The position numbers and the translations under genes were made by a program. A stretch of DNA of 64,000 nucleotides from Escherichia coli (GTDB lineage: Bacteria; Pseudomonadota; Gammaproteobacteria; Enterobacterales; Enterobacteriaceae), in NCBI RefSeq assembly GCF_016903815.1, contig NZ_CP069973.1; one strand, given 5' to 3'. Positions 1 to 2,181 of this stretch are shown here, in pieces (positions within the stretch are counted from its first letter, which is position 1; the number at the start of each line of letters is the position of its first letter). The notes beneath the pieces are model-generated. The model was not told the DNA's origin and made no database searches. It worked only from the letters and a program-made list of their open reading frames with translations.

Positions 1-1615
1 CGGCGAACTCATCCGCATCAGCAGCCCGCGACAGACCCGGAGTTACAGCTACAGCGACTCCGGCAGGCTGACCGGCGTCCACACCACCACCTCAAATCTG
101 GATATCCGCATCCCGTATGCCACGGACCCGGCAGGCAACCGCCTGCCCGACCCGGAGCTGCACCCGGACATCACCCTCAGCATGTGGCCGGATAACCGTA
201 TCGCCCGTGACGCGCACTATCTTTACCGGTATGACCGTCACGGCAGACTGACGGAGAAAACCGACCTCATCCCGGAAGGGGTTATCCGCACGGATGATGA
301 GCGGACTCACCGGTACCATTACGACAGTCAGCACCGGCTGGTGCACTACACGCGGACACAATATGCAGAGCCGCTGGTCGAAAGTCGCTATCTTTACGAC
401 CCGCTGGGCCGCAGGGTGGCAAAACGGGTGTGGCGGCGTGAACGGGACCTGACGGGCTGGATGTCGCTGTCACGGAAACCGGAAGTGACCTGGTACGGCT
501 GGGACGGCGACCGGCTGACCACGATACAGAACGACAGAACCCGCATCCAGACGGTTTATCAGCCGGGGAGCTTCACGCCACTCATCAGGGTCGAAACCGC
601 CACCGGTGAGCTGGCGAAAACGCAGCGCCGCAGCCTGGCGGATGCGCTTCAGCAGTCCGGCGGCGAAGACGGTGGCAGTGTGGTGTTCCCGCCGGTGCTG
701 GTGCAGATGCTCGACCGGCTGGAAAGTGAAACCCTGGCTGACCGGGTGAGTGAGGAAAGCCGCCGCTGGCTGGCATCGTGCGGCCTGACGGTGGAGCAGA
801 TGCAAAACCAGATGGACCCGGTGTACACGCCGGCGCGAAAAATCCACCTGTACCACTGCGACCATCGCGGCCTGCCGCTGGCGCTTGTCAGCACGGAAGG
901 GGCAACAGAATGGTACGCAGAATACGATGAATGGGGTAACCAGCTGAGTGAGGATAACCCGCACCAGCTGCAGCAGCTCATCCGCCTGCCGGGTCAGCAG
1001 TATGATGAGGAGTCAGGCCTGTATTACAACCGCCACCGCTATTATGACCCGCTGCAGGGGCGGTATATCACTCAGGATCCGATTGGACTGAAGGGGGGAT
1101 GGAATTTTTATCAGTATCCGTTAAATCCGGTTCAGTATATAGATTCAATGGGACTGGCATCTAAATATGGACACTTAAATAATGGCGGATATGGAGCGAG
1201 ACCCAACAAACCGCCTACGCCCGATCCAAGTAAGTTGCCAGACATAGCGAAACAATTAAGACTGCCATATCCTATTGACCAGGCCAGTAGTGCGCCTAAT
1301 GTTTTCAAAACATTCTTCAGAGCATTAAGTCCTTACGATTACACACTGTATTGCAGGAAGTGGGTAAAACCCAATCTGACTTGTACGCCGCAGGATGATC
1401 CCCAGTATCCAGGGATGGAGACAAAGACAGCAAGTGATTACCTGCCACAGACAACTTGGCCAACAACTCAATTACCACCAGGATATACTTGTGCAGAACC
1501 CTATTTATTCCCAGACATTAATAAACCCGATGGGCCAGCAACAGCAGGGATAGATGATTTGGGTGAAATTTTAGCTAAAATGAAACAGAGAACATCGAGA
1601 GGAATAAGAAAATGA
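1..1615 (+). CDS. rhsB: Rhs family polymorphic toxin, 3' portion (YD-repeat core end plus divergent C-terminal toxin tip); 5' end lies outside the window
   Basis: Frame 2 is open from position 2 and translates to Rhs core motifs ([55 protein letters not shown]). The PxxxxDPxGL-type boundary lies near 1120-1157, followed by an AT-rich ~150-aa tip. The rhsB assignment is by locus context only. Confidence 0.85.
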
Positions 1616-2181
1616 AAAGAGCTTTGTTCTTTTTGCTGATGATATTCGTTAGTTTTGGTGTTATAGCTAATTGCGAAACACAAGCTAAAGATCAAGATTG
1701 CTTTACCATTTTCACTAAGGGTACTATTTTTTCCGCGTTTCCTGTCTTAAATAATAAAACCATGTGGAGATGGTATCAGAATGAGGACATAGGTGAGTAT
1801 TATTGGCAAACAGAACTTGGTATATGTAAAAATAACAAATTCACACCAAGCGGGGCGAGACTCTTAATTCGCGTCGGATCACTACGCCTTAATGAAAATC
1901 ATGCAACCAAAGGAACGTTGCAGGAGTTGCTAAATACAGCAGAAAAAACGGCGTTTCTCGGCGATCGGTTTAGAAGTTATATAAGAGCGGGTATCTATCA
2001 AAAAAAGAGCAGTGATCCAGCTCAGTTGTTGGCAGTCCTTGATAATTCAATCATGGTTAAATATTTTAAAGATGAGAAGCCAACTTATGCTCGAATGACA
2101 GCACATCTCCCGAACAAAGATGAGTCTTACGAATGTTTAACAAAAGTACAGCATGAACTGCTTCGTAGTGAAGAAAAATAA
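1612..2181 (+). CDS. Putative cognate immunity protein of the Rhs toxin tip (189 aa, N-terminal signal peptide)
   Basis: Start ATG overlaps the rhs stop (ATGA). AT-rich. N-terminus [19 protein letters not shown] is hydrophobic and signal-like. Position immediately 3' of the toxin tip is typical of rhsI genes. Confidence 0.6.

Follow-up and report, generated by a model that had tools for sequence, protein, structure and literature searches.

[quoted passage not shown] The tip follows directly after the core-end motif, belongs to a family restricted to Rhs proteins and is joined by a YbfC gene at all nine loci compared, which together argue for a toxin/immunity module. The first-pass annotation of this DNA had taken the exported partner as a sign of a periplasm- or envelope-acting toxin, and this remains the best reading in view of the signal peptide, the disulfide-like cysteine pairs of the partner and the pairing at nine loci. 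Its further suggestion that the pair was undescribed does not hold as worded: the genes are known, as YbfC and the ybfO tip of K-12 and as RhsC and 'RhsCI' of EDL933, and it is their activity for which our literature search found no report. By sequence, the pair appears to fall outside the described families of toxins and immunity proteins, even though the genes themselves have been catalogued before.

A full-length Rhs protein with a distinct C-terminal tip

The rhs reading frame enters the window at its left end and stops at 1615. In a 100%-identical genome (NZ_CP023820) its product is the 1395-aa 'RHS element core protein' WP_048237751.1, and the gene occupies the nikR-yhhJ (rhsB) locus. 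The parts of the gene within the window are as follows.

1..1156, plus strand: 3′ part of the full-length rhs gene (Rhs/YD-repeat core), with its start upstream of the window; 100% identity to WP_048237751.1
1127..1156, plus strand: core-end motif PxxxxD[PS]xGL (…DSMGL), read from the sequence
1157..1327, plus strand: tip residues 1-57, a Pro-rich, basic, poorly conserved linker (alignment of 12 distant homologues)
1328..1612, plus strand: tip residues 58-152, a conserved toxin-like core with an amphipathic basic helix at its end (residues 135-152; alignment A4)

The NCBIfam model RHS_core scores 2616 bits against the protein and covers residues 1-1243, so that precisely the final 152 aa lie outside the match, and Rhs_assc_core covers residues 1166-1243 of the 1395. 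The core-end motif PxxxxD[PS]xGL is where Rhs proteins release their tips by autoproteolysis, and an equivalent motif stands directly 5′ of the tip at 9/9 loci. Base composition changes along the same stretch, with GC falling from 0.599 in the core (182-1156) to 0.436 in the tip and 0.375 in the downstream ORF, and such a break between core and tip is typical of swapped Rhs tips. A tip of about 150 aa beyond the core boundary had already been recognised in the first pass; the low-GC tip of 152 aa agrees with this, but the start proposed for it, 1158, was one base late, the in-frame position being 1157. At its other end the Rhs protein carries a DUF6531 domain (E = 8e-18) and a weak PAAR match that is not significant (E = 0.2). 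No vgrG was found adjacent to the rhs gene at this locus, and vgrG/PAAR-like genes adjoin related rhs arrays at other loci (L003 and L014/L015). The module lies in an island of immunity-type genes, with further immunity-like genes downstream at 2350-5509.

Conservation of the tip domain

Directly after the core-end motif, the 152 aa of the tip (in frame, 1157-1612) combine low GC with 14.5% Pro, three Cys (C66, C76 and C112) and one non-conserved His, in keeping with the earlier description of a Pro-rich tip with three Cys. Conservation is concentrated in the second part of the domain. Among 12 distant homologues, occupancy is 39% and identity 19% over residues 1-40 (20% Pro, pI 9.9), and identity stays at 18% over residues 41-57. 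The core, in contrast to this poorly conserved linker, follows the consensus SPYDYxxYCxKW…C…PGxDxKTxxDYxP…LPxGYxCxEPYxFPEL…AxAGxDD…R[KR], in which P107, C112, A130 and D134 are invariant and P59, C66, W69, C76, D94, P97, G109, F118 and R151 are near-invariant (alignment A4). Indeed, all three Cys are conserved in the tip family and a conserved His is absent. We considered the C-terminal RGxRK as a mere by-product of the embedded ribosome-binding site and ATGA overlap, and rejected this as a full answer: two loci without the 4-nt overlap (L009 and L007) still end in R-[KR].

The first-pass annotation could place neither a catalytic motif nor a known family on the tip, and our searches were similarly empty. 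Pfam gave no match to the tip even at E <= 10, none to 20 members of the tip family at E <= 0.001, and nothing for YbfC or for each member of its alignment (A5). Neither the tip nor YbfC matched any model in NCBIfam, PADLOC or PHROGs, and single-sequence and profile searches of both against PDB sequences gave nothing significant. The best Pfam hit, to 'Defensin_RK-1' (E = 0.056, in one alignment member when A4 and A5 were searched), was rejected as chance. A colicin-M-like motif (DxYDx5HR), compared by eye, was also set aside, its spacing being different and its R not conserved, and a glycan-cleaving domain of the MltA '3D'/DPBB-like kind, prompted by the three conserved Asp of the tip, is an idea without Pfam support. 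By these comparisons, the tip appears to have no significant match to known toxin families, among them nucleases, deaminases, ADP-ribosyltransferases (ARTs), amidases, lysozymes, lipases and colicin-like toxins. One of the 'Not determined' STox groups (Nicastro et al. 2026) could be the tip domain; in the accessible parts, the STox list, the Levy-lab PT1-9 and the Geller et al. catalogues offer no sequences to compare.

Structure prediction, also proposed in the first pass, succeeded for one of the two proteins. The AF2 model of the tip, built on an 11-sequence alignment, is largely disordered and unusable (pLDDT 42, pTM 0.24), so the 0 matches that it returned from Foldseek against the PDB are uninformative. 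The model of the 189-aa downstream protein, by comparison, reached pLDDT 77 and pTM 0.74 and is mostly beta.

A downstream protein with a predicted signal peptide

The downstream ORF (1612-2181, 189 aa) encodes a full-length member of the YbfC family, with 93% identity over 189/189 residues to K-12 YbfC (b0704). Its start ATG lies within the ATGA overlap of the rhs stop, as had been noted before. The features of this region are listed below.

1599..1603, plus strand: Shine-Dalgarno-like GAGGA within the final rhs codons, 8 nt ahead of the start of the ybfC-like gene
1612..1615, plus strand: ATGA overlap of rhs stop and downstream start; K-12, L003, L006, L011, L012 and L014 overlap by the same 4 nt
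1612..1668, plus strand: predicted Sec signal peptide of the YbfC-like protein, residues 1-19, by n/h/c-region rules
1669..2181, plus strand: mature YbfC-family protein, 170 aa plus stop; candidate immunity protein, predicted periplasmic beta-sandwich

Purine-rich motifs similar to GAGGA are found 5′ of the immunity start at other loci, and the ATGA overlap suggests that the two genes are translationally coupled. An internal promoter is unsupported by a promoter/terminator scan of 900-2900, in which sites were no more frequent than in shuffled sequence.

We assessed the signal peptide with simple rules (charge, an h-region of 10-18 residues and small residues at -3/-1). The YbfC-like protein begins with MKR (net charge +2), continues with an uncharged run of 16 residues and has a V-I-A site (-3/-1) at residue 19, where VIA is followed by N; no other hydrophobic segment is present, the maximum 19-residue Kyte-Doolittle value (KD19) in the remainder being <= 1.04. 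The same layout with an AXA-type site recurs in 8/8 homologues analysed, and the YbfC N-terminus is conserved in 21 orthologues. The classical signal-like N-terminus described in the first pass is borne out by these Sec-type features, kept in all homologues examined, and the signal-peptide prediction suggested there comes out positive under our rules. The protein fits the pattern of Sec export and cleavage by signal peptidase I, and is predicted to be exported. A lipoprotein (lipobox [LVI][ASTVI][GAS]C) was considered and rejected, the residue before C21 being Asn here (VIANC) and Asp in K-12 (VIADC); A or S precedes C21 in some YbfC orthologues only. Of the cysteines, C30 and C175 are invariant, and C21 and C72 are both present in 8/12 sequences and both absent in 4/12. 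Since these pairs are either invariant or gained and lost together, disulfides and a periplasmic location are predicted.

Tip and partner occur together across genera

The pair is present in 3517/5426 complete E. coli genomes (~65%), including K-12 and O157:H7. The tip family is small (28 representatives among 1.84 billion); it ranges from Enterobacteriaceae to Delftia, and all matches with upstream sequence continue from a Rhs core. Full-length Rhs proteins carry the tip in this strain, in Kluyvera and in O157:H7, in whose genomes the pair appears under a full-length 'RHS element core protein', and orphan fragments carry it in K-12 and Citrobacter.

At 9/9 loci (the window, K-12, L003, L006, L007, L009, L011, L012 and L014) the tip is followed by a YbfC-like ORF with a signal peptide, a pairing kept down to about 45% (tip) and 30% (ORF) identity. 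The YbfC-like gene is the immediate, usually overlapping neighbour at each of them, whereas the genes beyond it vary from locus to locus. Across the loci, tip identity rises with partner identity (Pearson 0.92, Spearman 0.42), a correlation that could come from co-inheritance alone, and the partner diverges faster than the tip. YbfC paralogues also occur in tandem or in multiple copies, at L006 and in several Kluyvera intermedia clusters, like immunity arrays. Indeed, the locus has the make-up of a Rhs module: a Rhs/YD-repeat core ending in PxxxxD[PS]xGL, a variable, compositionally distinct tip that is exchangeable between loci, and a small cognate gene directly downstream that co-varies with the tip. 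The reading frames of both tip and downstream ORF are kept in different genera, and comparison with the K-12 copy gives dN/dS values of 0.10 (tip) and 0.26 (YbfC-like ORF); these features are therefore more than chance, and purifying selection appears to act on both.

Proposed mode of action and its alternatives

By analogy with established Rhs biology, the tip would be held inside the Rhs shell, freed by autoproteolysis between …DSMGL and the A that follows, and passed to the periplasm of a neighbouring cell through a type VI secretion system (T6SS). There, to judge from its anatomy (three conserved Cys, aromatics, prolines and three conserved Asp), the ~95-residue tip core would fold and act in an oxidising environment. 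The basic amphipathic C-terminal helix may hold the tip at the membrane surface, and the tip would attack or block a periplasm-exposed envelope component; an attack on the cell wall or its lipid-linked precursors seems to us likelier than pore formation. YbfC would leave the cytoplasm by the Sec route, be stabilised by one or two disulfides and shield sibling cells by forming a 1:1 complex with the tip in the periplasm; the producer's own cytoplasm should be safe in any case, since the tip is proposed to stay caged and reduced there. A variant that we regard as possible, if unlikely, is that the ~95-residue core is not an enzyme but a disulfide-stabilised, aromatic- and proline-rich binding domain, which would kill through stoichiometric blockade of an envelope machine or precursor that is essential and exposed to the periplasm (lipid II, a peptidoglycan synthase, or the Lpt, Bam or Lol machines, for example), with YbfC as a decoy-like beta-sandwich binder. 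We know of no such binding-block mode of action described so far for Rhs or T6SS toxins.

It is unlikely that the tip instead permeabilises or depolarises the membrane, with its C-terminal basic amphipathic helix inserting in the inner membrane from the periplasm and YbfC sequestering it. Residues 135-152 do have a hydrophobic moment of 0.63, the C-terminal R-[KR] is conserved, an exported partner suits a toxin acting from the periplasm, and Tse5 is reportedly a precedent for a pore-forming Rhs toxin. However, the tip is hydrophilic (GRAVY -0.8), no hydrophobic or glycine-zipper membrane-spanning segment was found in it (maximum KD19 0.14), and the conserved Cys, Pro, Gly, aromatics and Asp of its ~95-aa core are not those of a helix-only peptide. 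Moreover, known pore-forming effectors are usually paired with immunity proteins that reside in the membrane, whereas a soluble beta-sandwich is predicted for YbfC.

Also to be weighed is a non-toxic relic, or a pair with some other role (surface, signalling), kept only through linkage to rhs recombination, which we consider quite unlikely. Our search of the literature on ybfO or ybfC found no functional study and no report of toxicity or neutralisation, as of 2025 ybfC was still described as having 'no functional annotation' (PMC11954222), the K-12 tip lies in an orphan fragment annotated as a pseudogene, and the AF2 model of the tip is largely disordered. Against a relic stand the low dN/dS of both genes, the intact copies on full-length Rhs in this strain, O157:H7 and Kluyvera, and the conservation of the family from Enterobacteriaceae to Delftia, with the pair in 65% of E. 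coli genomes.

An improbable alternative is that the tip acts in the cytoplasm, e.g. on nucleic acids or translation, with YbfC an unrelated exported fellow traveller and the real immunity elsewhere or absent. Characterised Rhs tips are mostly cytoplasmic nucleases, ADP-ribosyltransferases or deaminases. Similarly, the papers cited here mention Rhs tips with DNase or HNH endonuclease activity, a homologue bears the automatic name 'putative deoxyribonuclease RhsC' in one source, and more immunity-like genes lie downstream. That name, however, comes from the Rhs core and not from the tip, the YbfC-like gene adjoins the tip at every locus while the genes beyond vary, and it is Cys, and not His, that is conserved in the tip. 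The profile searches of the tip (1157-1612) that the first-pass annotation had called for found no nuclease, deaminase or ART family match at any threshold, and hence no cytoplasmic family of the kind that it had named.

Finally, it is highly improbable that the tip is an anti-eukaryotic effector with YbfC a co-secreted or accessory factor rather than its immunity protein, for although the accessible part of an in-silico EHEC study proposes host-directed RhsC roles from a weak VipE similarity (TM-score 0.574; PMC7216683), and rhsC and ybfC expression is higher in HUS-associated STEC (PMC6033998), a TM-score obtained by template modelling does not count as evidence, commensal and laboratory strains commonly carry the pair, the YbfC paralogue arrays and the faster divergence of the partner fit immunity, and the module lies within an island of immunity-type genes.

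Significance

Periplasmic action, to which the evidence points, would be unusual for a Rhs-borne toxin. Rhs elements were first described in 1984 in E. coli K-12, and to our knowledge most K-12 and EHEC Rhs tips have no assigned activity. Once worked out, the target of the tip could lead to a new mechanism of antibacterial attack on the Gram-negative envelope, and the function of tip and YbfC would explain two long-standing 'y-genes'. The non-enzymatic binding reading, if true, would provide a new envelope-biogenesis probe encoded by E. coli itself. Widely used laboratory hosts, as confirmed here for K-12 and HB101, have a ybfC with 93% identity, so standard toxicity assays may give false negatives unless ybfC is deleted.

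Comparison with known systems

Both tip and partner have close counterparts in K-12, where ybfO (b0703, an orphan rhs fragment) and ybfC (b0704) lie downstream of rhsC-ybfB. DNA identity is ~96% over tip and ybfC, corresponding to 98% amino acid identity for the tip and 93% for YbfC; the two loci share the ATGA overlap, and homology stops about 30 bp past the ybfC stop. Whereas in K-12 the tip belongs to an orphan fragment of 477 codons at the kdp/rhsC locus that carries a pseudogene annotation, the tip in the window ends a full-length 1395-aa Rhs and can therefore be made as a deliverable protein.

In EHEC O157:H7 EDL933 the same pair is found as RhsC (z0847 fused with z0851) and 'RhsCI' (z0853) in the accessible part of PMC7216683, whose rhsC-specific primer matches the tip at 1198-1217. 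That part of the study treats RhsC in silico only, proposes from its template model a VipE-like role in host vesicle traffic, and reports a signal peptide for the RhsE immunity protein and not for RhsCI. Its proposal, as far as the accessible text goes, is of a host-directed RhsC, whereas the present evidence points to a periplasm-acting antibacterial module. Elsewhere, ybfC has been labelled a 'putative secreted protein' (PMC6033998).

For other T6SS pairs, a signal peptide on the immunity protein has been taken to indicate a periplasmic toxin, and this was tested by periplasm-targeted expression (10.1101/2023.03.26.534264). The logic of an exported immunity protein against an envelope toxin is shared with Tse1/Tsi1, Tae/Tai, Tlde1 and T6EC1/T6IC1, which have no sequence relation to the tip or YbfC. 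These systems, which include the Tae/Tai amidases and the colicin-M-like T6EC1/T6IC1, are periplasm-acting T6SS effectors with Sec-exported immunity. In contrast to these effectors, the tip is without a Cys-His or metallo motif and is carried on Rhs rather than as free cargo.

Tse5 (RhsP1) of Pseudomonas aeruginosa is said to be a Rhs-borne pore-forming toxin whose hydrophobic Tse5-CT inserts in the membrane and whose immunity protein is a membrane protein. Tse5 and the tip in the window are both Rhs C-terminal domains with an envelope site of action, which for the tip we infer; the tip, however, is hydrophilic, and the model of its partner points to a soluble beta-sandwich.

The tips of Dickeya RhsA/B and of Salmonella Rhs are nucleases that are neutralised in the cytoplasm. 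The present system has in common with these Rhs proteins (PMC3150448, PMC3967940) the order of core, PxxxxDPxGL motif, variable tip and small downstream gene, as well as the main/orphan arrangement; in Dickeya the HNH motif of RhsB-CT has been confirmed. The present system differs from both in a partner that is predicted to be exported and in a tip that matches no nuclease family.

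An rhs gene with a low-GC tip

The window starts inside a long plus-strand open reading frame ending at 1615. In E. coli strain 7/2 (NZ_CP023820), which is 100% identical to the first 19 kb-equivalent region of the window, its counterpart lies between nikR and yhhJ, where K-12 has rhsB, and encodes a 1395-aa 'RHS element core protein'. The RHS_core model (NCBIfam) spans residues 1-1243 and leaves exactly 152 C-terminal residues unmatched. GC content, 0.599 for the core, falls to 0.436 for this tip and to 0.375 for the gene behind it, bearing out the switch from core to low-GC tip described in the first-pass annotation. 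That annotation rightly placed the tip after the core boundary but began it at 1158, one base after the in-frame start. Its overlapping downstream reading frame is likewise present, preceded by GAGGA 8 nt upstream; with tip, partner and ATGA overlap all found in the sequence, the original observation is confirmed.

Features of the rhs module
1127-1156, + strand, core-end motif PxxxxD[PS]xGL, read from sequence
1157-1612, + strand, tip, in frame and directly after the core-end motif
1612-2181, + strand, YbfC-like ORF of 189 aa, starting at the ATG of the ATGA overlap with the rhs stop

No vgrG was found at this rhs locus, and the N-terminal PAAR match of the Rhs protein was not significant. Elsewhere, vgrG, DUF2169 and PAAR-like genes flank a related rhs array (L003), and vgrG lies directly 5' of another (L015).

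The pair is ybfO/ybfC

The partner is YbfC, matching K-12 b0704 over its full length at 93% identity, and the tip is the C-terminus of K-12 ybfO (b0703), an orphan rhs fragment annotated as a pseudogene. DNA identity between window and K-12 is about 96% across tip and ybfC, and homology stops about 30 bp past the ybfC stop. The K-12 module is an orphan lying behind rhsC-ybfB; that of the window ends a full-length rhs gene at a different locus. Of 5426 complete E. coli genomes, 3517 carry the pair at a query coverage of at least 80%. Some have it beneath a full-length 'RHS element core protein' (e.g. O157:H7), others beneath a partial 'RHS repeat-associated core domain' fragment. PGAP uses 'protein YbfC' for the K-12-like allele (NC_000913.3, 735650-736219) and 'hypothetical protein' for the window allele (1612-2181), yet the two are of equal length and 93% identical; its naming rule appears close to exact-match.

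The rhsC-specific primer of a study of EHEC EDL933 matches window positions 1198-1217 exactly, within the tip, so the RhsC and 'RhsCI' (z0853) of that study are the same pair (PMC7216683). The genes of this supposedly undescribed pair are thus already known under two sets of names, whereas the literature searched contained no functional work on ybfO/ybfC. A STEC transcriptome study lists ybfC as a 'putative secreted protein' (PMC6033998), a 2025 report gives 'no functional annotation available' (PMC11954222), and the EDL933 study offers only low-scoring template-modelling guesses for RhsC (PMC7216683).

Tip and partner travel together

We compared nine loci: those of the window and K-12, three from enterobacterial or metagenomic relatives and four distant ones. 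At the distant loci, identity to the window pair is 41-49% for the tip core and 31-42% for the partner. In all nine cases a tip of 136-153 aa follows immediately on the core motif, and directly behind it comes a YbfC-like ORF of 188-207 aa, usually with a 4-nt overlap, while the genes further downstream vary. Tip and partner identities are correlated across loci (Pearson 0.92, Spearman 0.42), with the partner diverging faster. The constant position of the YbfC-like ORF speaks against a rival reading in which the tip is a cytoplasmic toxin and the YbfC-like ORF an unrelated neighbour.

Another rival takes the module for a relic, and in K-12 the tip does lie in an annotated pseudogene. In comparison with K-12, the tip has a dN/dS of 0.10 and ybfC one of 0.26; both are therefore maintained as proteins. 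The tip of K-12 ybfO (ybfO at 7221-8654 of locus L002) differs from that of the window's full-length copy by only 3 amino acids, and with a dN/dS of 0.10 the orphan resembles a reservoir copy, open to reactivation by recombination. Such reactivation has reportedly been described in a study of Salmonella rhs orphans.

At one locus (L006) two tandem YbfC-like paralogues (4735-5301 and 5404-5976) follow a single tip, and at least four distinct YbfC-family clusters (P0045, P0049, P0055, P0057) are assigned to Kluyvera intermedia. Both suggest accumulating immunity variants, as expected for immunity genes. The common laboratory hosts E. coli HB101 (NZ_CP178859.1) and K-12 (NC_000913.3) carry ybfC, and this chromosomal copy could mask toxicity in screens of the tip.

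The partner is predicted to be exported

Sequence features of eight YbfC-family proteins from different loci agree with the signal-like N-terminus first proposed for the partner: all have a positively charged start, then 10-18 uncharged residues and an AXA-type site at residues 19-23 (VIA|N, ALA|C, ASA|M, AIA|N, AFA|E, LYA|E), with no further hydrophobic segment. In the window protein C21 comes directly after an Asn, which rules out a fit to a lipobox. Among 12 diverse members C30 and C175 never vary, and C21 and C72 occur together in eight and are jointly missing from four. Two disulfides would be expected to give such a pairing pattern, which argues, as indirect evidence, for an oxidising compartment.

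The tip is a narrow family

The tip contains 14.5% Pro, three Cys (both features as initially reported) and one His, with a GRAVY of -0.8. Neither tip nor partner matched Pfam even at E <= 10, nor NCBIfam, PADLOC, PHROGs or PDB sequences, in keeping with the earlier failure to recognise a catalytic motif. An exhaustive HMMER search of 1.84 billion representative proteins with a tip profile found only 28 proteins, and every match with upstream sequence runs on from an Rhs core. Those with a named source come from Escherichia, Salmonella, Citrobacter, Phytobacter and Delftia; a full-length Kluyvera Rhs with the tip was located via its YbfC neighbour.

In an alignment of 20 family members (A4), residues 1-57 form a variable Pro-rich linker and 58-152 a conserved core, in which P107, C112, A130 and D134 are invariant and P59, C66, W69, C76, D94, P97, G109, F118 and R151 nearly so; no His is conserved and E114 varies. 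Searches of PDB and Pfam with the A4 profile were again empty. AF2 with a first, shallow alignment gave a pLDDT of 42, and no structural conclusion was drawn.

Another rival makes the tip a membrane-active peptide. The last 18 residues of the tip, a basic amphipathic segment (hydrophobic moment 0.63), speak for this reading; the lack of any hydrophobic segment in the tip (maximum 19-residue Kyte-Doolittle mean 0.14) speaks against it. A conserved R-x-x-R-[KR] ends the family (window 1589-1612; equivalents in L003, L006, L007, L009 and L011) and in part coincides with the partner's ribosome-binding site and start codon. Loci lacking the 4-nt overlap retain the basic end as well, so a protein-level constraint probably acts too.

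A neighbouring immunity-type island

Window positions 2350-5509 (+ strand) hold an immunity-type gene island without an adjacent cognate toxin, followed by an orphan rhs fragment.

Features downstream of the module
2350-2697, + strand, NTF2-fold ORF, annotated by PGAP with start GTG 2425 as 'NTF2 fold immunity protein', with an in-frame upstream ATG at 2350
3280-3564, + strand, DUF6258 gene
3837-4214, + strand, broken pentapeptide-repeat gene
4296-4562, + strand, frameshifted NTF2-fold gene
4652-5509, + strand, yibA, HEAT-repeat gene
5551-6216, + strand, orphan rhs core-end fragment with a different, apparently truncated tip

Read from ATG 2350, the first NTF2-fold ORF gains MRNSLILLIMILFTISHSVFG, a second signal-peptide-like N-terminus, and could encode a further orphan immunity protein that is exported, its start being mis-annotated. 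In K-12, yibA belongs to the rhsA locus; its place here at the rhsB position, between nikR and yhhJ, suggests that modules are shuffled among rhs loci. Beyond the orphan fragment, at about 7236-8513 (offset from L001), lie IS1 and ISAs1 (H-repeat) transposase genes.

Proposed mechanism and comparison with known systems

The window pair is a regular Rhs core/tip/immunity module whose partner belongs to the YbfC gene family. Its architecture is conserved, the tip is confined to Rhs C-termini and coupled to an exported-looking, disulfide-type partner, and it has neither membrane-spanning segments nor known catalytic motifs. We propose release of the tip at DSMGL|A and its delivery by a T6SS, after which it would fold in the periplasm of the target cell, probably forming a disulfide, and would act on an envelope component, where YbfC would neutralise it. 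C76 is missing from one Salmonella homologue, hence the guess that C66 pairs with C112. The mix of residues (Cys, Pro, Gly, aromatics, three Asp) fits either a small enzyme acting on a glycan- or lipid-linked substrate or a pure binding domain. A host-directed effector is a further, unlikely rival.

K-12 ybfO/ybfC and EHEC RhsC/RhsCI are identical in kind to the window module. The pair is a good experimental target, an uncharacterised member of a kind of system already known. An exported partner is unusual among Rhs tips; by analogy, the module would work like periplasm-acting T6SS effector/immunity pairs, but it lies outside all their families.
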